From an uncultured Planctomycetota bacterium (GTDB lineage: Bacteria; Planctomycetota; PLA2; JAEUHO01): a stretch of 64,000 nt of DNA. The notes under the pieces were generated by a model, which worked only from the letters and a program-made list of their open reading frames with translations, searched no databases and was not told where the DNA came from. The stretch covers positions 544,001 through 608,000 of the forward strand of contig CAVVXN010000005.1 of assembly GCA_963752285.1 (NCBI GenBank), in the 5' to 3' direction. The translations under genes and the position numbers were made by a program. Shown one piece after another: positions 52,637 through 61,948 of the stretch (the stretch's first letter is position 1; each line of letters starts with the position of its first letter).

Positions 52637-53973
52637 AGCTCGACCCGAAGCGTGCCGTGGAGCGGCACGGCGCTCGACGCGAGCGCGCCATCCTCGTCGG
52701 GCTCCTCCTTCCCGACGCCCCGACCACGTACGCCGAGCCGCTGGAGGAGCTCCGTCGGCTGGCGGACACGGCCGGCGCGGACGTCGTGGACGCCGTCGTG
52801 CAGAAGCGCGCGCGGCCCGACTCGGCCACGTGGCTCGGCCGGGGAAAGGTCCAGGAGATCGCGGCGCGGATGGGCGAGCTCGACGCCGACCTCGTGATCG
52901 TCGATCACGACCTGTCGCCGTCCCAGGCGCGAAACCTCGAGAAGATCGTACCGGGGCGCGTGATCGACCGCACCGAGCTGATCCTCGACATCTTCGTGCG
53001 ACGTGCTCGGACCGCGCTGGCGAAGGCGCAGGTCGAGCTGGCGCAGATGGAGTACGCCCTTCCGCGTCTGAAGCGGCTCTGGACGCACCTGAACCGCGAG
53101 GTGGGCTCGGGTCGCGCCGGGATCGGGCTTCGCGGACCGGGCGAGAAGCAGATCGAGGTGGACCGACGACTCGTGCGCGACAAGATCCGCGACCTGAAGA
53201 ACGAGCTCCGGGTCATGGCCAGGCACCGCGAGCGCCAGACCCGCGCGCGGGCCGCCTGGTTCAGCGTCTGCCTCGTGGGGTACACGAACGCCGGGAAGAG
53301 CACCCTCCTCCGCGCCCTTACGGGCGCCGAGGTCCTGGTGCAGGACCGCCTCTTCGCGACGCTCGACACGACGACGCGGGCCTGGGAGATCGCGCCGGGA
53401 AAGCGCGTGTTCCTCTCGGACACCGTGGGTTTCATCCGCGACCTGCCGCACCACCTCGTCTCGTCCTTCCTCGCCACGCTCGAAGAGGCCCGCCAGGCCG
53501 ATCTCCTCGTCCACGTCGTGGACGCCGCCGACCCGGACGCGCTCGACCACGTGGACGTCGTGGAGGAGACGTTGTCGAGGATCGGCGCGGGGGGCGTGCC
53601 GCGGATCGCGGTGCTGAACCAGGTGGACCGGGTCCGCGACGCGTTGGGCCTGCGCGCGCTGGAGGACCGCCTGCCCCGGGCCCTCGCCACGAGCGCCATG
53701 ACGGGCGAGGGGCTCGAGGCGCTCCGCGAGGCGGTGTACGCGTACGTGACGCGCCGCGACGTGGACCTCGTGGTCGAGGCCGACGCGGGCGACGGCAAGC
53801 TCCTCGCGCAGCTTCGAGAGTGGGGTCAGGTCCACGACGTCGCCTACCGGGACGGCAGGGCGCTCGTAGGCCTGCGCGTGCCCGCGCGCTACCTCGACCT
53901 CATCCGCCGGGCGGGGGGTGTGGTCGTCCAGGGCGCGCCGGAGCCGGCCCCGTCCGACGACGACCCCGCCTGA
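52633..53973 (+). CDS. hflX: GTPase HflX
   Basis: LADTAG, DRTELILDIF, QVELAQ.EY.LPRL, RGPGEKQIEVDRR, VGYTNAGKSTL, LFATLD, SDTVGFIR.LPH. The TTG start overlaps the nadB stop. Confidence 0.96.
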   Translation: MKLDPKRAVERHGARRERAILVGLLLPDAPTTYAEPLEELRRLADTAGADVVDAVVQKRARPDSATWLGRGKVQEIAARMGELDADLVIVDHDLSPSQARNLEKIVPGRVIDRTELILDIFVRRARTALAKAQVELAQMEYALPRLKRLWTHLNREVGSGRAGIGLRGPGEKQIEVDRRLVRDKIRDLKNELRVMARHRERQTRARAAWFSVCLVGYTNAGKSTLLRALTGAEVLVQDRLFATLDTTTRAWEIAPGKRVFLSDTVGFIRDLPHHLVSSFLATLEEARQADLLVHVVDAADPDALDHVDVVEETLSRIGAGGVPRIAVLNQVDRVRDALGLRALEDRLPRALATSAMTGEGLEALREAVYAYVTRRDVDLVVEADAGDGKLLAQLREWGQVHDVAYRDGRALVGLRVPARYLDLIRRAGGVVVQGAPEPAPSDDDPA

Positions 53974-54057: not shown

Positions 54058-57000
54058 TCAGACCGCCGCGGGCGTCGGCTCGATCTCCTCGACCTCGATG
54101 TGGACTGTGAGGGCCCACAGCGGGAAGAGGAGTACGCCGCTGGCGAACACGAACAGCCCGAAGCCGAAGCCCCACAGCAGCCACGCGAGGGCCGTGAAGG
54201 GGAGCAGCGGCAGGAGCCAGGCCTTCGAGGCCGGGACGCCCAGCAGGGCGTGCGCGCGCGGGCGCCACCGGCGGATCCTCTCCCAGTGCCACGGCAGGAA
54301 GAGGAGGAGCGGGGAGGCGATCGCGACCGTGGAGTACGTCCCGATGACCGACCCGACGATCAGGATGAACGCAAAGCCCTCGAGGACGTTTCGCTGCCCC
54401 ACGTTGATCGCGAAGAGCGCGACCGCGGCCAGGAGGAACGTGGCGGAGGTCTTGATGGACCGCGCGAGCGTCTGGTTGATCGAGAGGTCGATCATCCCGG
54501 GCGTGATCGTCGGCTTCTTGCCGCGGTTCTCGCGGATCCGGTCGAACACCACGACCGTGTCGTTCACCGAGTAGCCCACGAGCGTCAGGAACGCCGCGAC
54601 CATCGGAAGCGAGATCTTCGCGTCCACCCAGCCGAAGACGTTCGCGACGGCGGTGACGCCCAGCGTGAAGGCCACGTCGTGGAACAGGCAGAGCACCGCG
54701 GAGAGGCCCATCGCCCGGCTGCTGAACCGGAACGCCACGTACACGATGATGCCCAGGAGGGACAGCACGAGGGCCACGAGCGCGTCGTTCTGGAGCCGGC
54801 GGGCCACGCTCGACCCGATCACGTCGGCCGCGGGGAAGGGCTGGCTCAGTCCCACGCCCTCGGCAGCGTCCGGGATCACGCCCTGGGCCTCCAGGGCCCT
54901 TTGGATCTCGGTGCCCCCCAGGAATTCCGAGAAGGTCGCGCGAATGGCGTCGGGCGTGCGCTCCACCGCCGTCTTCGAGGTCGGGTTCTCGGACTTCAGC
55001 CAGATCTGAAACGACTTGAAGGCCTCGTTCCCGGTCTCGACCGGCTTCACCACGACCGTGCGTTTCACTGCCGAGGCCGGGTTCTTGCGCCGCTCGCTGC
55101 CGTGGATCGTCCAGTACGGCATCGAGTCCGTGACCGCGGTCCGCAGTCGATCGGCCGTGAGGACGCCCGACGGGTCGAGCAGGTTGACCTGGAGCGCCAC
55201 CCCCCCGTCCACCGACTTCATCTCGTCGCCTGCGTCCTGCGGTGCCTTGTACGGCTGGGGCTTCTCCGCCAGCCAGTCCGGCACGAGGCGGTCGCCGAGG
55301 ACCTCGTGAAGGAACCCCTCGAAGGCCTTCTCCTCGACCTCGACGGAGGGTGCGCCTCCTCCCTTCACGTCCTTCGGCTCGAGACCACGCTGCACGGTCA
55401 CCTCGACCGCGTCGCCCTTCGTCCCGACCGCGACGACGTTGGCGTTCGGGTACGGGCCGGCCTCCACCTCGTGCTCGACCTTTCGCAGGTTCTCGTTCTC
55501 GTCGAACTCCTCGGTCTCCACGGTGAGCTTCTTCGACGTGGACGAGAGGAGCCTTCGGACCTCGTCCACGCTGGTGGGCTCGCGGCACTGCACCTGCAGC
55601 TTCAGCCCGCCCGTGAAGTCCACGTCGTAGAACGTGTACTTGTCCTCGAACCCGAACACGAGCAGCCCGAACAGGATGCCCAGGGCCGAGAGCGGCGCGA
55701 AGTAGCGCCGGAGCGCGACCCACGGGATCTTCGGCGCCACGCCCGACCCGAGCATGCGCATCTCGTTGAGCCGGCCGCGCTTCAGGAGCCACTCGAAGAT
55801 CGTGCGTGTCACGTAGATCGCGGTGAACATCGAGACGATCAGACCGACCGCCAGCGTGACGGCGAACCCGCGCACGGGGCCCGACCCGTACGCGTACAGG
55901 AAGACCGCGGTGATGAGGCTCGTGACGTTGGCGTCTACGATCGTGGTGAAGGCGCGGTCGTACCCCTCCGACAGCGCACGTCTCATCGTTCGCCCGGCCC
56001 GCCGCTCCTCTCGGATGCGCTCGTTGATCAGGATGTTGGCGTCTACCGCCATACCGAGCGTGAGCACGATGCCGGCGATGCCGGGCAGGGTCAGCACCGC
56101 TTTGAAGAACGCCAGCGTCCCCAGCAGGAGCACCAGGTTCAGGAGGAGCGCGAAGTTCGCGATCAGGCCCGATGACCGGTAGTAGACGACCATGAACGCG
56201 AGCACGAGCAGGAAGGCGACGATCACCGCCAGGATGCCGCGATTCCGCGACTCGCCGGCGAGGGTCGCGCCGACCTTGGTCCGCGACTCGAGCTTCGGCT
56301 TGACCTTGAGCGAGCCCGTCTGGAGGACGGTCGCGATGCTCTCGGCCTCCTTCTTGACCTCGTTGTACGTCTTGCCCGCGCCCAGCGTGATCTGTACCCG
56401 GTCCGAGAGGCGACTCTGGATGATCGGGTCGGTGACGAACTCCTCGTTGAGGACGATCGCCATCGGGAGGCCCTTGTTGGCCTCGGTCCAGTCGCCGAAG
56501 ACCTTCTGGTAGTCCGTCTTGACCTCGTAGAGGACGACCGGCATCCCCGACTCGCCCTGGCTCGGCACGGGGTTCGTGATGATCCGACCGTCGAAGCGGT
56601 ACTGCGCCTCGGGCTCTTCGAGGAGCACGAAGTCGGTCGGCTTTTCCGCGGAGGTGTCGCCCTCCTTCCTCTGCCTCGGCACCACGAAGTAGCGGGGGTC
56701 CGTCGGCTTGTATGGGAGCGCGCCGATCTCCGCGTCCTTCCACTTCTTGACCTCGTACGCGAGGAACTCCTCGTAGCCCTGGGCGGTCGCGGGCCAGGTC
56801 TTGGCGTTCTCCCCCTCGCCCTCCTTGGCCCCCTGCCACGGCGCCTTGCCAGTCTGAAGGCGGGGCGGGAGCCCGCCCGACTCGAGACCCCCGTACTGGT
56901 TCGTGGGCCGGACCGTGATCCGGAACATCAGGTCGCCGAGCTGGGTGACGACGTCGCTGATGCTGTCCACGTCGCCGGCGCTTTCAGCGGGCAGCGAGAT

Positions 57001-57285
57001 CTCGAACTTGTCCTCGCCGATCGGCGTGATCGAGGTCTCGGCCAGGCCGAACGTGTTGATGCGCTGGTCGATCACCTTGATCGTCTCGGACACGATCCGG
57101 TCCCGGTTCCCCGGCGCGATCCGTCCCGTGGACTCCGCCCGCTCCAGGTCGAGAGAGAAGCGGAGCGTCGTTCCGCCCTCGAGGTCCTGCCCGAGGCGGA
57201 TGCCCTGGGCCAGGAACGACCAGAGCAGGAGCGACGTCACCGTCAGGGTGAGCAGGCTGCGGGTCTTCAGGTTCATCTGTTCCAT
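54058..57285 (-). CDS. secDF: Fused protein translocase subunit SecDF
   Basis: LGQDLEGG, TLPGIAGIVLTLGMAVDANILINERIREE, IVDANVT, DFTGG, HDV, GYSVNDTVVVFDRIREN, NQTLAR, GTYST. Confidence 0.97.
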   Translation of the reverse strand: MEQMNLKTRSLLTLTVTSLLLWSFLAQGIRLGQDLEGGTTLRFSLDLERAESTGRIAPGNRDRIVSETIKVIDQRINTFGLAETSITPIGEDKFEISLPAESAGDVDSISDVVTQLGDLMFRITVRPTNQYGGLESGGLPPRLQTGKAPWQGAKEGEGENAKTWPATAQGYEEFLAYEVKKWKDAEIGALPYKPTDPRYFVVPRQRKEGDTSAEKPTDFVLLEEPEAQYRFDGRIITNPVPSQGESGMPVVLYEVKTDYQKVFGDWTEANKGLPMAIVLNEEFVTDPIIQSRLSDRVQITLGAGKTYNEVKKEAESIATVLQTGSLKVKPKLESRTKVGATLAGESRNRGILAVIVAFLLVLAFMVVYYRSSGLIANFALLLNLVLLLGTLAFFKAVLTLPGIAGIVLTLGMAVDANILINERIREERRAGRTMRRALSEGYDRAFTTIVDANVTSLITAVFLYAYGSGPVRGFAVTLAVGLIVSMFTAIYVTRTIFEWLLKRGRLNEMRMLGSGVAPKIPWVALRRYFAPLSALGILFGLLVFGFEDKYTFYDVDFTGGLKLQVQCREPTSVDEVRRLLSSTSKKLTVETEEFDENENLRKVEHEVEAGPYPNANVVAVGTKGDAVEVTVQRGLEPKDVKGGGAPSVEVEEKAFEGFLHEVLGDRLVPDWLAEKPQPYKAPQDAGDEMKSVDGGVALQVNLLDPSGVLTADRLRTAVTDSMPYWTIHGSERRKNPASAVKRTVVVKPVETGNEAFKSFQIWLKSENPTSKTAVERTPDAIRATFSEFLGGTEIQRALEAQGVIPDAAEGVGLSQPFPAADVIGSSVARRLQNDALVALVLSLLGIIVYVAFRFSSRAMGLSAVLCLFHDVAFTLGVTAVANVFGWVDAKISLPMVAAFLTLVGYSVNDTVVVFDRIRENRGKKPTITPGMIDLSINQTLARSIKTSATFLLAAVALFAINVGQRNVLEGFAFILIVGSVIGTYSTVAIASPLLLFLPWHWERIRRWRPRAHALLGVPASKAWLLPLLPFTALAWLLWGFGFGLFVFASGVLLFPLWALTVHIEVEEIEPTPAAV

Positions 57286-57351
57286 GGCGATCGAGGCTCC
57301 CAAGGAGGCGCCGGAGGCACGGCTCCTCCCGAGACCGCCGGACGGGGCGGC

Positions 57352-57666
57352 TCAGAGACGGAGGGAAACGAGGCGGCGCGACGCGTCGCAGGCGGGGGCC
57401 GTCTCCGACGCGCGATGGGCCGCGCGAAGGGCGGTCGGCGCGAGTCGCGCCCACCCCGCCGGCGCGAGGGCCACCGGCGCGAGACCGAGATCGAGTCCGC
57501 GGTCGATCGCGTGGCCGGCCGTGGCCGGCGACGCGTTCGATGCCGCGTGGACGAGAGGCACCGGCGCGAGGAGGGCGACCAGCACCGCGAGGAGGGCCGG
57601 GAGGAACGCGCACCCCGCCGTGACGGCGGTTCGGGCCAGTCGGCGCGCGCGCCTCCGCGGGCTCAC
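57352..57666 (-). CDS. 104-aa signal-peptide ORF between yajC and secDF (candidate regulatory leader or arrest peptide)
   Basis: The GTG start overlaps the yajC stop (GTGA), with GAGGAGG 7 nt upstream. Arg-rich N-region, hydrophobic core and VHA cleavage-like site; stop 66 nt before the secDF ATG. Confidence 0.65.
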   Translation of the reverse strand: MSPRRRARRLARTAVTAGCAFLPALLAVLVALLAPVPLVHAASNASPATAGHAIDRGLDLGLAPVALAPAGWARLAPTALRAAHRASETAPACDASRRLVSLRL

Positions 57667-58022
57667 GAGGACGCCTCCTCGGTGCGCTCCGCGGCCTTCG
57701 CGGAGGCTTCGTCGGGCGACACGACGTGGGCGACGGCCTGCCGGGAGAACCGGATCCGGACGTTGCTCTTGTCGTCCACGCGGAGCACGATCGTCTCGCC
57801 CTCGACGGCCACGACCGTGGCGTGCATCCCACCGGTCGTGACCACGCGGTCGTGCTTCTTGATCGCGGCCAGCTCCGCCTCGCGCTGCTTGCGCTCCCGA
57901 GACTGCGGCCGGATCAGCACGAAGTAGAAGATCAAGGCGACGAGCGCGAGCGGGATCCACCAACCGCCCCCGCCCTGTGGCGCGGCCTGGTCGGCGGCGA
58001 TCGTCATCCACCACGCGTCCAC
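57663..58022 (-). CDS. yajC: Preprotein translocase subunit YajC
   Basis: IFYFVLIRPQ..RKQR, IKKHDRVVTTGGM; AAGGAGG RBS before GTG. Confidence 0.95.
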   Translation of the reverse strand: MDAWWMTIAADQAAPQGGGGWWIPLALVALIFYFVLIRPQSRERKQREAELAAIKKHDRVVTTGGMHATVVAVEGETIVLRVDDKSNVRIRFSRQAVAHVVSPDEASAKAAERTEEASS

Positions 58023-58160
58023 CGAGTTCCTCCTTCGTCCTCGCGGTCCCCGGCCGTGACGGGGGGCCCGCCGCGCCCGGAAGCCCCGTATCGTAGGCTC
58101 TCCCGCCGGCCCGCCGACCAAAAATGGACGGCGAACGGCGTCGGACGCCCGGGGACCCCG

Positions 58161-59276
58161 ATGCGAATCCTGGCCGCCCTCTCGGGCGGGGTGGACAGCG
58201 CCGTCGCCGCCGCGCGCCTCCTCGAAGAGGGGGCCGACGTGATCGGGGTACACCTCGCGACCGGCGTCGAGTCCGACGGCGACTCGGCGGGCGCGAGCCG
58301 GTCGTGCTGCGGGGCCGAGGACGCGCGCGACGCCCGCGCCGTCGCGGCGCGACTCGGGATCCCGTTCTATGTCGTCAACGTCCGCGAGGCGTTCGCCGCC
58401 GTGCTCGAGGACTTCGTCGGCGCGTACGCCGCGGGCCGGACTCCGAACCCCTGCGTGCTCTGCAACCGGGACGTGAAGTTCGGGCGGCTCGACGAGGTCG
58501 CTCGGGGCCTCTCCTGCGAGGGCGTTGCCACCGGACACTACGCCCGGCGCGAGCGAGGCGCGGGCGGGCGGTGGCGCCTCCTCCGCGCGCGGGACGAGAA
58601 GAAGGACCAGTCCTACGTGCTCTACCCGCTCTCGCAGGCACAGCTCGCGAGGGCTTGCTTCCCGCTCGGGGACCTCCAGAAGACAGAGGTCCGCGCGCGT
58701 GCCCGCGCCCTCGGCCTCCCGGTCGCGGAGAAGCCGGACAGCCAGGACCTCTGCTTCCTGCCCGGAGGCGACGTGCGCGCGTTTCTCGCGGCACGGGCGC
58801 CCGAGGCGGCGCGCCCGGGCGCGTTCGTGGAGGAGGGGAGCGGCCAGGTCGTCGGACGGCACGGGGGCGCGGCGGGGTTCACGCTCGGACAGCGACGGGG
58901 ACTTCCCGCGCTCGGTCGCCCGCGCTACGTCTCGGGCGTGGACCCCGGGAGCGCCACGGTCCGGATCGCGCCGCGCGAGGCGCTCGAGCGGCGGACGGTC
59001 GCGATCTCGGGCGCGAACTGGGTCGAGGTGGCCGAACCCGGGGCCGGCGCGCGCTTCGAGGTGGCCGCGCGGATCCGACACGCCTCGGTTCCGGCGCCCG
59101 CCACGCTGGAGGCGCTCGGGAGCGGGGCGGCGCGAGTCCGGTTCGAGGCGCCCGTGTTCGCGCCGGCACCGGGGCAGGCCCTGGTCGCCTACGCAGGCGA
59201 GGCGGTCCTCGCAGGGGGCGTCCTGGAGCGGGCGGAGAAGCCGGACGGGCCCGGGGCTAGCCCAGACGGTCCTTGA
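58161..59276 (+). CDS. mnmA: tRNA 2-thiouridylase MnmA
   Basis: LSGGVDS, GRTPNPCVLCN..VKFG, ATGHYAR, KDQSY, KPDSQDLCF, T.GQRRG, PGQ. Confidence 0.96.
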   Translation: MRILAALSGGVDSAVAAARLLEEGADVIGVHLATGVESDGDSAGASRSCCGAEDARDARAVAARLGIPFYVVNVREAFAAVLEDFVGAYAAGRTPNPCVLCNRDVKFGRLDEVARGLSCEGVATGHYARRERGAGGRWRLLRARDEKKDQSYVLYPLSQAQLARACFPLGDLQKTEVRARARALGLPVAEKPDSQDLCFLPGGDVRAFLAARAPEAARPGAFVEEGSGQVVGRHGGAAGFTLGQRRGLPALGRPRYVSGVDPGSATVRIAPREALERRTVAISGANWVEVAEPGAGARFEVAARIRHASVPAPATLEALGSGAARVRFEAPVFAPAPGQALVAYAGEAVLAGGVLERAEKPDGPGASPDGP

Positions 59277-59529
59277 GCGCCTTGCCGGCGCGGAAGCCCA
59301 CGCCCACGGACGCCGGGATCGGGATGCGCTCCTTCGTCTGGGGGTTGGTCCCCATGCGCGCCTTGCGACGCGAAACCCGGAACGTGCCGAATCCGAGGAT
59401 CGCCACGTCGCCGTCCTGCGTAAGTCCTTCGGACACGGAGTCCGTGAAGGCGCTCAGCGCGCGCTCGGCCTCCGCCTTGCTCGAACCCAGGTGACGCGCC
59501 ATGGCGTCGACGACTTCGGCCTTGTTCAT
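59257..59529 (-). CDS. hup: HU family DNA-binding protein
   Basis: MNKAEVV, GFGTF, RKARMGTNPQTKE.I.IPA, FRAGKALKD. Confidence 0.95.
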   Translation of the reverse strand: MNKAEVVDAMARHLGSSKAEAERALSAFTDSVSEGLTQDGDVAILGFGTFRVSRRKARMGTNPQTKERIPIPASVGVGFRAGKALKDRLG

Positions 59530-59608
59530 CGCATCTCCCGCCGGGAGGGCCCTCCGCGGGGCGAATCCTAGCCAAACCTCGAAGGTCCGCAAGCCGTAAA
59601 CTCACCCC

Positions 59609-61948
59609 ATGGGGCCGAGCCGGATCCGGGTTCTCGCCGCGAGGGCGCTGATCGTGGGGGGCGTCGTGGCCGGAATCCTCGGCGTCGCGCTGCCGGCCTT
59701 CGGCCCTCCGCCGCCCCCCGTGGCGGTGGTGGACCTCTCCGCGAGCGTGGGGGCCGGCGCCTCCGGACCCCCCGAGGGCGCCCGCGTCTCGCCGACCTGG
59801 TACGCGGTCGCAGACGGCGTGGAGACCTCGAATACGCGCTCCGCGCCCTCCGGGCTGGGACGGGAGGCGAGCCGCATCGGCGAGGCCCTGAGACGGGTCG
59901 CCGAGGACCATCCGGGGCGCGTCGTCTGGCTGATCAGCGACGGCCGCGCGACGGACGGCTCGGCCGAGGACGCCGCGCGGGGCATCCGTGCGCGCGGCGG
60001 GCGGCTCTACACCGCGCCGCCCGCGCGCCCGTCCGCGGACGTCGGCCTCGCGCTCGCGCGGGCGCGGCGCACCCCGGGTGGTGGGGCGGAGGTCCTGGCC
60101 GTGGTCGAGGCCTCCGCCGAGGCGAGCGGGCGCGTCCTCCTCGTCCGGGACGGGGCCGCGATCGCCGGGGCGCCCTTCTCGCTCCCGGCGGGCTCGCGGG
60201 TCGAGGTGCGGATCCCGGACCCGAAGGCGCCGGACCTCCCCATCGCCTACCGAGTGCGGCTCGAGGTGGCCATCGGCACCGCGGACGACGACCCGGCGAA
60301 CGACGCGATCGAGCTCGGCCTCCCCTCGGACCGGCCCGGGGTCCTCCTCTTCGGGGACCTCCCGCCGGCGGCGTTCGCGAGCCCGGGCTCCGGGTTCCTC
60401 CTGAGAAGCATGCAGGCGTGGGAGGCGGGCGCGCTCGAGGCGGCCGACCTGGTGCTGCTCTCGAGCGTGTCCGTGGAGCGGCTGGGTCCCGCGCGCGTCG
60501 AGGACCTCCAGCGGTTCGCCGCGGGCGGCGGGCGCGTCCTGATCCTCGGCGGGCCGCAGGCGTGGGCCGCCGGCGGGTGGGCGGGATCGCTCGCCGAAAC
60601 CACGCTCTCGCCGCTTCGCGTGAAGGCGCCCGAGGGCAAGGGGACGGCCATCGTCCTCGTCCTCGACAAGAGCGGCAGCACCGCGCGGGGCGCGCTCGCG
60701 TCGCTCGTCCGCGCGGCGCGCGTGGCCGCACGTGGGCTCGCCCCCGGCGAGCGGCTCGCGATCCTCCCGTTCGCCGCGCGACCCGACGCGGCCGTTCTCG
60801 CGCCGGGCTGGGTCGAGAGCGGGGCCACGACGCGCCTCGGCGAGCTCGACGCCTCGCTCGAGAACCTGAGCGCCGGCGGCGGCACGGACCTCGTTCGGGC
60901 CCTGGGCGCCGCCGCCGACGTCTGCGGGGCGGAGCCCGCGACCCACCGACGCGTGATCCTCCTGACCGACGGCGATCCCGACCACGTACCCGACCGCGAG
61001 GCGCTCGCGGCGGTCGCGGCGCGCCTCGCCCGCGGCGACGTCCGTTTCGGCGCGGTCGTGTCGGGGATGCCCACGGCGGCGGCGCTCCTCCGCGAGACGC
61101 TCGCCGCGCGCCCCGACGACGTCGTGCTGCTCGACCGCGCAGGCGCGATCCCCGACCGCCTTCTCCGGGAGCTGTCCCGCGCGCGCGCGGAGCAGGAGCG
61201 CCGTCCCGCGCCGACGTCGGTGACGTGGCTCACGCCGGTGGACGACGACCTCGCGCGCCTCGCGCCGACGTACGTGCAGGCGCTCGAGGCGACGCCCGAC
61301 GCCACGGTGCTCGCGGTGGCCGACTACGCGGACGGTGCGCGCCTGCCGTTCGCCGCGCGGCGCGCGCTCGGTGCCGGAGAGGTGGTCGCGTTCGCGTGGG
61401 GACCGGAGGGCGAGCCCGACGGCGCCGCGGCGGCGCTGTCGCTCCGCGGCTTCGTGCGCGACCTCGCGCGGCGGGCCGACCGCGGCCTGCTCGCGGACGT
61501 CACCGGCGGCCTCGTCCGCGTGCGCCTTCCCGCGGCGTCGGGCGCCGGCGCGCTCGAGACCTTGCAGGGCCCGGAGAGCGCGCGCCTCCTCGAGGTCGAG
61601 CCCGGGGTGTTCGAGGGCGAGCTCCTGGGCGACCGGTCCGTGCTCCGGGTGCGCGTCCCGGGCCGGGACGGGGCCGAGGACGTCGTGCGCCCCCTCGACC
61701 TGCCGGCCCTCCCGCCCGAGGAGCACCGCGGCACGGGTGTGGACCTCGCGACGCTCGACCGGTGGGCCCGCGCCGGCGGGGGCCGGCGGCTCGCGCCGGG
61801 CGAGGAGCCGGACCGCGGCCCGTCGGGTCCCGGGACGCCGCTCGCCCCCTGGCTGCTGCTCGGGGCGCTCCTCTTCCTGCTCGAGGAACGACGCCTCGCG
61901 GAAGCGACGCGTGCCCTCGCCCGATCCAGCATGGAGGAGACACCGTGA
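59609..61948 (+). CDS. Membrane-anchored vWA-domain protein (two vWA-like units, Ig-like and GATase-like segments)
   Basis: N- and C-terminal TM segments; VVDLSAS...LISDG; MIDAS LVLDKSGS, GGGT, ILLTDG; GGRVLILGGPQAW..GGW....LSP. Confidence 0.82.
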   Translation: MGPSRIRVLAARALIVGGVVAGILGVALPAFGPPPPPVAVVDLSASVGAGASGPPEGARVSPTWYAVADGVETSNTRSAPSGLGREASRIGEALRRVAEDHPGRVVWLISDGRATDGSAEDAARGIRARGGRLYTAPPARPSADVGLALARARRTPGGGAEVLAVVEASAEASGRVLLVRDGAAIAGAPFSLPAGSRVEVRIPDPKAPDLPIAYRVRLEVAIGTADDDPANDAIELGLPSDRPGVLLFGDLPPAAFASPGSGFLLRSMQAWEAGALEAADLVLLSSVSVERLGPARVEDLQRFAAGGGRVLILGGPQAWAAGGWAGSLAETTLSPLRVKAPEGKGTAIVLVLDKSGSTARGALASLVRAARVAARGLAPGERLAILPFAARPDAAVLAPGWVESGATTRLGELDASLENLSAGGGTDLVRALGAAADVCGAEPATHRRVILLTDGDPDHVPDREALAAVAARLARGDVRFGAVVSGMPTAAALLRETLAARPDDVVLLDRAGAIPDRLLRELSRARAEQERRPAPTSVTWLTPVDDDLARLAPTYVQALEATPDATVLAVADYADGARLPFAARRALGAGEVVAFAWGPEGEPDGAAAALSLRGFVRDLARRADRGLLADVTGGLVRVRLPAASGAGALETLQGPESARLLEVEPGVFEGELLGDRSVLRVRVPGRDGAEDVVRPLDLPALPPEEHRGTGVDLATLDRWARAGGGRRLAPGEEPDRGPSGPGTPLAPWLLLGALLFLLEERRLAEATRALARSSMEETP

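Follow-up and report, generated by a model that had tools for sequence, protein, structure and literature searches.

A conserved signal-peptide open reading frame between yajC and secDF in a class of Planctomycetota, a candidate secretion-monitoring leader with a stop-anchored C-terminus

The yajC-secDF locus and its small gene

The window analysed here is a 64-kb stretch (64,000 nt) of contig CAVVXN010000005.1 from an uncultured Planctomycetota bacterium, whose genome is referred to below as G000. Between yajC and a fused secDF, in a gap of 377 nt, the window carries an upstream open reading frame (uORF) of 104 codons. An earlier note, made from the letters of the window alone, had proposed that this frame encodes a leader peptide with an export signal that stalls ribosomes and thereby tunes SecDF synthesis. 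Coordinates are those of the whole window, and all elements of the yajC-uORF-secDF unit lie on the minus strand. The coding elements, with G+C content at the three codon positions given as GC1/2/3, are as follows.

57663..58007 (-), yajC: 114 aa from the ATG at 58007; Pfam YajC, 2e-24; GC1/2/3 = 0.69/0.48/0.95
57674..57680 (-), Shine-Dalgarno-like box GAGGAGG: inside the end of yajC, 7 nt 5' of the uORF GTG (direct reading)
57665-57663 (-), yajC stop TGA: overlaps the GTG start of the uORF
57352..57666 (-), uORF, candidate secDF leader or monitoring peptide: 104 codons plus TGA; GTG 57666-57664, TGA 57354-57352
54058..57285 (-), fused secDF: 1075 aa, ATG at 57285; Pfam SecD_SecF_C (2.3e-68), SecDF_P1_head and SecD_1st

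The 3' end of yajC reads ...GAGGAGG-CGTCCTC-GTGA, and direct reading of this junction confirmed what the earlier note had described: a Shine-Dalgarno (SD) box 7 nt before a GTG that overlaps the yajC stop, a frame of 104 amino acids running from 57666 to 57352 with the translation quoted there, and a uORF end 66 nt (57351-57286) before secDF. The uORF may thus be coupled to yajC by re-initiation at the overlapping GTG.

At 79% G+C all three frames of the gap are free of stops, so an open frame is by itself no evidence of a gene; the uORF frame is mechanically open as far back as 58014 (220 aa), with 116 codons reaching into yajC. At the GTG, high GC3 passes from one frame to another. In the yajC frame GC3 stays at 0.93-1.0 to about 57720 and then falls, and in the uORF frame it is 0.93 from 57660 on; the uORF as a whole has GC1/2/3 = 0.82/0.67/0.88. 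The same 104-aa protein is already recorded in a protein collection, and gene callers predict it.

A direct search of 41 genomes with the 104-aa peptide returned only the peptide itself below E = 0.001, as did a word-index search, and synteny and a profile were therefore needed to look for relatives. By YajC protein search, yajC was detected in 38 of the 41 related genomes. Thirty loci were fetched, 25 of which contain both yajC and the start of secDF, with gaps of 377-663 nt between the two genes (481 nt in locus L030). A scripted scan gave an ORF of 101-166 aa with a hydrophobic N-terminus and a GC3 of 0.62-0.99 in 24 of these 25 loci; it starts on the yajC stop or a few bases away (+53 in L038) and ends 66-240 nt before secDF, the spacer being untranslated. 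The 25th locus, L030, also carries a syntenic ORF, as do four further genomes of the window's family. Purine-rich GGAG/AAGG boxes stand 8-13 nt before the uORF start in most relatives.

The window's family consists of 29 genomes, two of which gave no YajC hit (77% and 81% complete) and one of which has its locus cut by a contig end; the syntenic ORF was present in all 26 readable loci. In the sister family it occupied the same slot in 10 of 10 readable loci (seven complete, three contig-truncated). The genome set contains no other family of this order and class, to which 40 of its genomes belong. Across the 36/36 loci of the class that could be read, the start either overlaps the yajC stop or falls within about 70 nt of it.

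A profile (A1) built from 22 syntenic peptides recovered 59 proteins at E ≤0.001 among 1.84 billion representatives, 58 of them 61-159 aa long, and an alignment of 54 rows (A4) was assembled. The family evolves fast, with 35% identity between two species of one genus. The ratio of nonsynonymous to synonymous substitution rates (dN/dS) ranged from 0.32 to 0.61 among the six closest pairs, and distant pairs were saturated, with values near 1; for the middle part of the peptide it was 0.17-0.52 in close pairs. On this comparative sequence record the 104-codon ORF is a real conserved gene, far beyond what chance would give.

Of 23 secDF loci sampled from Planctomycetota beyond this class, none had a non-YajC ORF of ≥45 aa with a hydrophobic N-terminus within 800 nt upstream. 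YajC was recovered as an ORF immediately before secDF in five of them, at a distance of 19-141 nt. The YajC-based locus search also returned one locus of another lineage, which lacks the uORF. Two loci of other Planctomycetota families (L122 and L124) have yajC-secDF gaps of 425 and 347 nt, longer than the 19-141 nt found elsewhere, and no ORF of ≥45 aa with a hydrophobic N-terminus was detected in these gaps. At three further loci of other Planctomycetota (L046, L050 and L059), a gene for a protein of 126-197 aa follows yajC instead of secDF; no secDF match was found after yajC in L046 and L059, and a weak hit (E = 0.01) lies about 1.1 kb downstream in L050.

Close relatives of the window's SecDF are named at source as SecD or SecD/SecF fusion, Planctomycetota bacterium, in line with the phylum that the earlier note had assumed. 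An mnmA-type tRNA thiolase gene (57726-59273, plus strand) is divergent from yajC and an HflX-type GTPase gene (50944-53970, plus strand) is convergent on the end of secDF, so yajC-uORF-secDF was taken as the unit. Further neighbours encode an HU-type DNA-binding protein (59260-59592, minus strand) and a VWA-domain protein (59609-61945, plus strand).

The peptide family and its stop-anchored C-terminus

Three parts can be distinguished in the window's peptide.

57544..57666 (-), residues 1-41, candidate export signal or membrane anchor: Arg-rich n-region, hydrophobic core with the conserved Pro, V-H-A before A42
57481..57516 (-), weak copy GHAIDRGLDLGL of the family mid motif D-x-S-A-A-A-L-x-x-L-x-R-x-L (alignments A1 and A4)
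57355..57402 (-), C-terminal module TAPACDASRRLVSLRL, the last 16 residues: conserved P91, stop-anchored end L-R-L

The export signal or transmembrane (TM) segment and the spacer of the earlier note were both borne out, the spacer being long and, by prediction, unstructured. Maximum hydropathy over 13 residues is 2.91 in the window's peptide, and over 15 residues the 54 members have a median of 2.86 and a minimum of 2.10. AlphaFold2, run with the 54-row alignment, predicted a helix at residues 3-33 with a predicted local distance difference test score (pLDDT) of 93-96 and coil at residues 41-104 with a pLDDT of 55-65; the predicted template modelling score (pTM) was 0.33, and no fold was predicted beyond the N-terminal helix. 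Pfam and NCBIfam gave no match for any of the 54 members, and look-alikes in the ESM Atlas were unnamed hypothetical clusters only, with recognition below the mark.

In alignment A4 an Arg-rich n-region precedes a strongly hydrophobic core, within which a proline (P23 in the window) is kept in at least 90% of the 54 members. The block D-x-S-A-A-A-L-x-x-L-x-R-x-L follows 10-25 residues behind the core, its A50 again in at least 90%. An Ala/Pro/Gly-rich stretch of variable length then leads to the C-terminal module. P91, a proline kept in at least 90%, belongs to this module, as in most cases does an acidic residue, and its end is conserved by position relative to the stop. Family members are 94-159 aa long.

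Composition at the last three positions was tabulated over the 54 members.

Position -1 from the stop: L, F, I, V, M or Y in 46/54 members (background 28%)
Position -2 from the stop: R or L in 47/54 members (background 23%)
Position -3 from the stop: R or L in 49/54 members (background 23%)

The full triple [R/L][R/L][LFIVMY]-stop was found in 36 of 54 members, against 14 of the 2718 genes called in G000. Several C-terminal sub-types could be recognised, namely ..E-x-R-R-[L/F], G-P-G-x-D-G-x-P-[L/F]-[L/R]-x and L-P-L-R-[L/V/I], with S-L-R-L in the window. Both the window and L025 have an inner ...SRRL and, behind it, a short extension closing once more in LRL or RLL, which is the outcome that selection on the residues next to the stop would yield. 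Stop-anchored conservation of this kind fits the earlier note's idea of an event at or near termination. The conservation in relatives on which the earlier note's proposal depended was thus found: the ORF is there in all 36 readable loci, with a hydrophobic N-terminus, and in the window's family it has a stop-anchored C-terminal end.

The C-terminus was also compared with published motifs. As the earlier note had stated, the peptide has no RAPP-type motif; the pattern [R/Q/H]-[A/G]-P-[P/G] of the RAPP/RQH group is absent from the window's last 16 residues, TAPACDASRRLVSLRL, and from the family consensus. L-P-P-P (or x-P-P-P) is absent from the last 15 residues in the window and in the 25 family ORF ends listed. 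Nor does N-A-P or D-G-M-K precede the stop, the family ending in RRL, RRF, PLLL, PLRL or SLRL.

At the codon level, the last sense codon (57357-57355 in the window) ends in C in 21 of 25 family uORFs, against 51% at other codons, and the terminal Leu codon is CTC in 12 of 14, the relatives not being independent. Read-through or selenocysteine insertion at a UGA followed by a hairpin was considered and rejected, as 4 of 25 uORF stops are TAG; only 6 of 25 loci (the window and 5 of 24) have the uORF in frame with secDF and just one stop codon in between, about the rate expected by chance.

The sister family's peptides have the slot and the signal in common with those of the window's family; in them conservation is highest at the C-terminus, which reads (V/L)-R-A-G-L-x-x-L-P-P-P plus 1-13 residues. 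PPP is invariant in 8/8 of these peptides, which are 108-182 aa long and sit in the yajC-secDF slot of loci L042, L043, L049, L051, L053, L056, L057 and L039. According to PMC10987492, a class named uA_LPPP occurs upstream of secA in three orders of Planctomycetota (Phycisphaerales, UBA1161, WQYP01); it stalls ribosomes of B. subtilis (fAP 1) and of E. coli (fAP 0.51), and does so with the third proline codon in the P site. By its C-terminal sequence the sister family would be an LPPP-type leader before secDF, as against the published class before secA. The sister-family hairpin seemingly lies at a fixed distance from the PPP codons and not from the stop; drift of the stop codon explains this equally well, and the observation was not used.

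RNA behind the uORF stop

Downstream of the uORF the following elements were read or predicted, the latter from the minimum free energy (MFE) fold.

57286..57351 (-), untranslated uORF-secDF spacer: 66 nt
57335..57350 (-), short hairpin CCGCC-N6-GGCGG: starts 2 nt after the uORF stop (MFE fold)
57298..57334 (-), second stem region: GGGAGGAG pairs with one of two CCTCC copies; at its base UCUC pairs with the secDF SD (MFE fold)
57297..57301 (-), GGGAG, likely secDF Shine-Dalgarno: 11 nt 5' of the ATG (direct reading)

The spacer elements named in the earlier note, GGGAGGAG, CCTCC (twice) and GGGAG, are all present. In the MFE fold of the window GGAGG pairs with the second CCTCC, and the secDF SD pairs weakly with UCUC.

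Relative to shuffled sequences, the 55 nt after the uORF stop fold with a mean z of -1.28, and 8 of 25 loci reach z ≤-2; the corresponding values at 150 ordinary gene ends in G000 were a mean z of -0.07 and 5% reaching -2. An alignment of the hairpin comprised 12 sequences from five genera, that is, four genera (g2, g4, g5 and g6) plus four poorly fitting rows. Pairing holds in 74% of its cells, and sliding the 3' partner lowers this to 37-53%; covariation reaches a score of 0.282, versus 0.212 at most, and five pair types occur at one of the pairs. A covariance model (R1, eight sequences) searched against 29 genomes gave one strong hit per source genome, at the locus, and four weak hits elsewhere, so that the four-genus hairpin is not a repeat family. 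Other genera, including that of the window, have unrelated hairpins at the same place after the stop; the window's is short, those of its relatives being stronger.

In loci L033, L091, L092, L093, L027, L029, L034 and L030, the first 60 nt or so after the stop contain the hairpin of model R1, which is conserved, G+C-rich and 10 bp long and has compensatory changes, and 3' of the hairpin a CTG-Y-GCAA block is conserved in four genera. Six loci (L026, L028, L031, L091, L092 and L093) have the secDF SD in a mini-hairpin CUCC-N4-GGAG within the last 20 nt or so before the start; variants are CCUUC/GGAGG and CCUU/AAGG. These mini-hairpins were seen by eye, without statistics, and suggest an occluded ribosome-binding site. 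The offset of the hairpin from the stop was dropped as a discriminator, since its median is 2 nt both at uORF ends and at 150 ordinary gene ends.

An Rfam scan of the yajC-secDF gap returned only IRES_Bip, whose 12.2 bits (E = 0.4) fall short of the gathering score, 40. On the coding strand a consensus scan gave neither a terminator nor a sigma-70 promoter, though the consensus may not fit Planctomycetota, and no T-run was found 3' of the hairpins. Among the sequencing runs listed for the locus were only DNA contigs with small shares, and no RNA run.

Interpretation of the uORF and its alternatives

We consider it most likely, at about an even chance, that the uORF encodes a Sec-targeted leader which would report export capacity and tune secDF through a new, stop-anchored C-terminal module. 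Four in-silico criteria for Sec-monitoring arrest peptides are given by Fujiwara et al. 2024 (PMC10987492), and each can be set beside what was found here. The uORF is a small ORF of no annotated family, directly upstream of secDF and co-oriented with it; it has an N-terminal signal or TM segment, by hydropathy and the AlphaFold2 helix; its C-terminus is conserved among homologues (alignment A4, the stop-anchored triple, P91); and more than 30 residues lie between the signal and the conserved C-terminal end, the distance from the hydrophobic core to the end being 68-129 residues in the 54 members (median 83.5). Sec-monitoring peptides are described in the same source as having long, variable spacers, with which the length of the uORF spacer is compatible. 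The preference for a monitoring leader follows from the presence of all four features, from this fit of the spacer and from the stop-anchored precedents known before secDF.

Mechanistically, the sequence of events might run as follows. Ribosomes finishing yajC would re-initiate at the overlapping GTG, as the overlap and the SD suggest. The Arg-rich, hydrophobic N-terminus would bring the nascent chain to SecYEG, with about 70 unstructured residues reaching through the tunnel and out of it. The final 10-15 residues, P-x..-[D/E]-x-x-[R/L][R/L][L/F], could then slow release at the stop and leave the ribosome parked on the UGA, a step to which the stop-anchored conservation points. Such a ribosome would cover about 10 nt past the stop and might keep the adjoining hairpin open, whereby an attenuator function could be blocked, or the spacer with the secDF ribosome-binding site refolded. 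By analogy with SecM, VemP and LudP, pulling by active translocation would free the stall. In the sister family the same slot would be served by the published L-P-P-P elongation-arrest motif. What is shown is the gene itself, its start overlapping the yajC stop, the signal, a chain without predicted structure, the conserved end and a hairpin at the stop; stalling at termination, release by export and control of secDF are inferred.

Comparison with known systems places the uORF as follows. In secDF-leader classes of Bacteroidota and Clostridia that end in N-A-P or D-G-M-K, positions -1 to -5 matter (PMC10987492; preprint 10.64898/2026.10.26.761930), and LudP can arrest termination. Like the uORF, these classes are small ORFs directly before secDF whose products combine a signal at the N-terminus, a long spacer of variable length and an end conserved by distance from the stop. 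Unlike them, the uORF ends [R/L][R/L][L/F], belongs to Planctomycetota, sits between yajC and secDF overlapping the yajC stop, and is a candidate only as regards arrest. With uA_LPPP it shares the phylum, and the sister peptides end hydrophobic-x-L-P-P-P plus 1-13 residues, like seven rows of Supplementary Data 2 (PMC10987492); the window's peptide, however, has no PPP, and the sister peptides precede secDF and not secA. The ApdA/ApdP/RQH family, which is R-A-P-P-like and also stands before secDF (PMC7897499; PMC10987492), has the same layout of signal, spacer and C-terminal motif, whereas the window's end and the family consensus lack its motif. For VemP, the leader of secD2F2 in Vibrio, functional elements are also described outside the arrest motif (PMC7793623).

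VemP and SecM, the secA leader, resemble the uORF in being Sec-exported leaders, in which stalling is considered to open an RNA structure further downstream. They differ in having no sequence similarity to the uORF family (no match in Pfam or NCBIfam) and in stalling during elongation, with the SD in a stem next to the stall site; at the uORF loci the SD lies 50-230 nt further on. A possible analogy is offered by TnaC, in which a stall at the stop codon, beside an RNA signal that governs passage of transcription or translation into the genes behind it, blocks downstream transcription termination, given that the uORF hairpin starts 2 nt after the stop. Unlike the uORF, TnaC senses tryptophan, carries no export signal and acts through Rho.

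Several results weigh against the monitoring leader. The conserved proline inside the hydrophobic core is unusual for a mere signal peptide. The mid block, 45-90 residues from the stop, is the best conserved part of the family, and it lies outside the ribosomal tunnel when the ribosome is on the stop; an arrest model does not by itself explain it. The window's end, ...RRLVSLRL, matches no published arrest motif, and rare codons are not enriched at the C-terminal end (25/200 versus 300/2761, p = 0.48). Basic residues at -2 were linked to efficient, not poor, termination in E. coli work of the 1990s. Family and sister-family peptides have no detectable homology (hhalign probability 0.2%), so that LPPP counts as an argument by its position alone. 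At 28 secA loci of related genomes, drawn from this class and a small number of other Planctomycetota families, no signal-peptide uORF precedes the gene, G000 having been read directly, and nothing comparable stands before yidC in G000; in this class the leader therefore belongs to secDF.

The RNA predictions add to these objections. The window's own 55-nt fold after the stop, at -31.1 kcal/mol, falls at about the 12th percentile of 600 gene ends. The earlier note had further suggested a pairing switch that frees the secDF SD, and this part of its proposal found no support: with a ribosome masking the uORF stop, predicted accessibility of the secDF SD went from 0.49 to 0.48 in the window, and over 25 loci the mean went from 0.456 to 0.465, with 0.454 for a control mask. 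Accessibility predictions are coarse at this G+C content. A conserved hairpin does adjoin the stop, with no evident connection to the SD.

The strongest alternative, possible although we think it unlikely, is that the product is a small protein, exported or anchored in the membrane, with a role after its synthesis, either as an accessory partner of SecDF-YajC or through a C-terminus read by a periplasmic PDZ-type protease or sensor; the place in the operon would then reflect shared function rather than control through stalling. It is favoured by the two positions conserved most, P23 in the hydrophobic helix and A50 in the amphipathic mid motif, by purifying selection in the middle part, by the place of the mid motif outside the tunnel and by the absence of a predicted SD switch under the stop mask. 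Conservation anchored on the C-terminal carboxylate is, moreover, expected of a ligand of a PDZ domain or tail-specific protease. Such a protein would, however, have an Ala/Pro/Gly-rich exported part in members ranging from 94 to 159 aa, with no predicted fold beyond its N-terminal helix; fast evolution, the structured untranslated spacer of 66-240 nt before secDF and the sister family's LPPP arrest-type motif in the same slot also speak against it. A complex prediction for SecD(1-540), YajC and the peptide gave no verdict either way, with a score of 0.00 and a mark of 0.32.

Alternatively, translation and the hairpin may be all that matters, the latter being a partial terminator or a processing or stability element that sets the YajC:SecDF ratio, perhaps with a separate secDF promoter in the spacer, and neither export sensing nor a programmed stall being involved. 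The conserved, locus-specific hairpin directly after the stop, the CTG-Y-GCAA block behind it in four genera, the long spacer before secDF and folding that shows no ribosome-dependent effect on the SD agree with this. Left unexplained would be the signal peptide, the mid motif, the stop-anchored residues and the sister family's LPPP, and the lack of a T-run and the empty terminator and promoter scan, its consensus perhaps ill-suited to the phylum, argue in the same direction; we regard this explanation as improbable. A chance, untranslated open frame in G+C-rich intergenic DNA, which the three open frames, the 116 codons reaching into yajC and the direct protein search of 40 relatives (no hit better than E = 0.001) might suggest, is contradicted by the comparative data, namely synteny in 36/36 class loci with start position and hydrophobic N-terminus conserved, 58 further small proteins found by the profile, frame-specific GC3 and dN/dS below 1 in close pairs, and is very improbable indeed.

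Returning to the monitoring leader, a bolder form of it can be put forward, tentatively and with more doubt than confidence. A leader would have been inserted between yajC and secDF throughout the class, working by LPPP elongation arrest in one family and by P-x..-[D/E]-x-x-[R/L][R/L][L/F]-stop termination arrest in that of the window, where a ribosome on the stop would open the hairpin in a tnaC-type anti-attenuation rather than unmask the SD as in SecM. No description of the uORF family, or of an LPPP leader before secDF, was found in the full-text literature, the coverage of which does not extend to the table of secDF candidates in PMC10987492, where either may already be listed. The locus combines a familiar architecture with an unfamiliar C-terminal module, and its lineage is represented solely by metagenome-assembled genomes.

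Arrest peptides are rare natural probes of how a nascent chain shuts down the catalytic centre of the ribosome, and each new motif has exposed a new mechanism. If the peptide stalls, its Arg/Leu-rich end at the stop codon would add a type of termination arrest that does without proline. The presence of unrelated C-terminal modules in the same slot of two sister families would be a natural experiment on how a sensor is replaced in evolution. Should the peptide instead prove to be a stable SecDF-YajC partner, the translocon of this lineage would have a component so far overlooked. As a leader, it would give a first handle on how the Sec machinery is regulated in Planctomycetota, a phylum with an unusual cell envelope.

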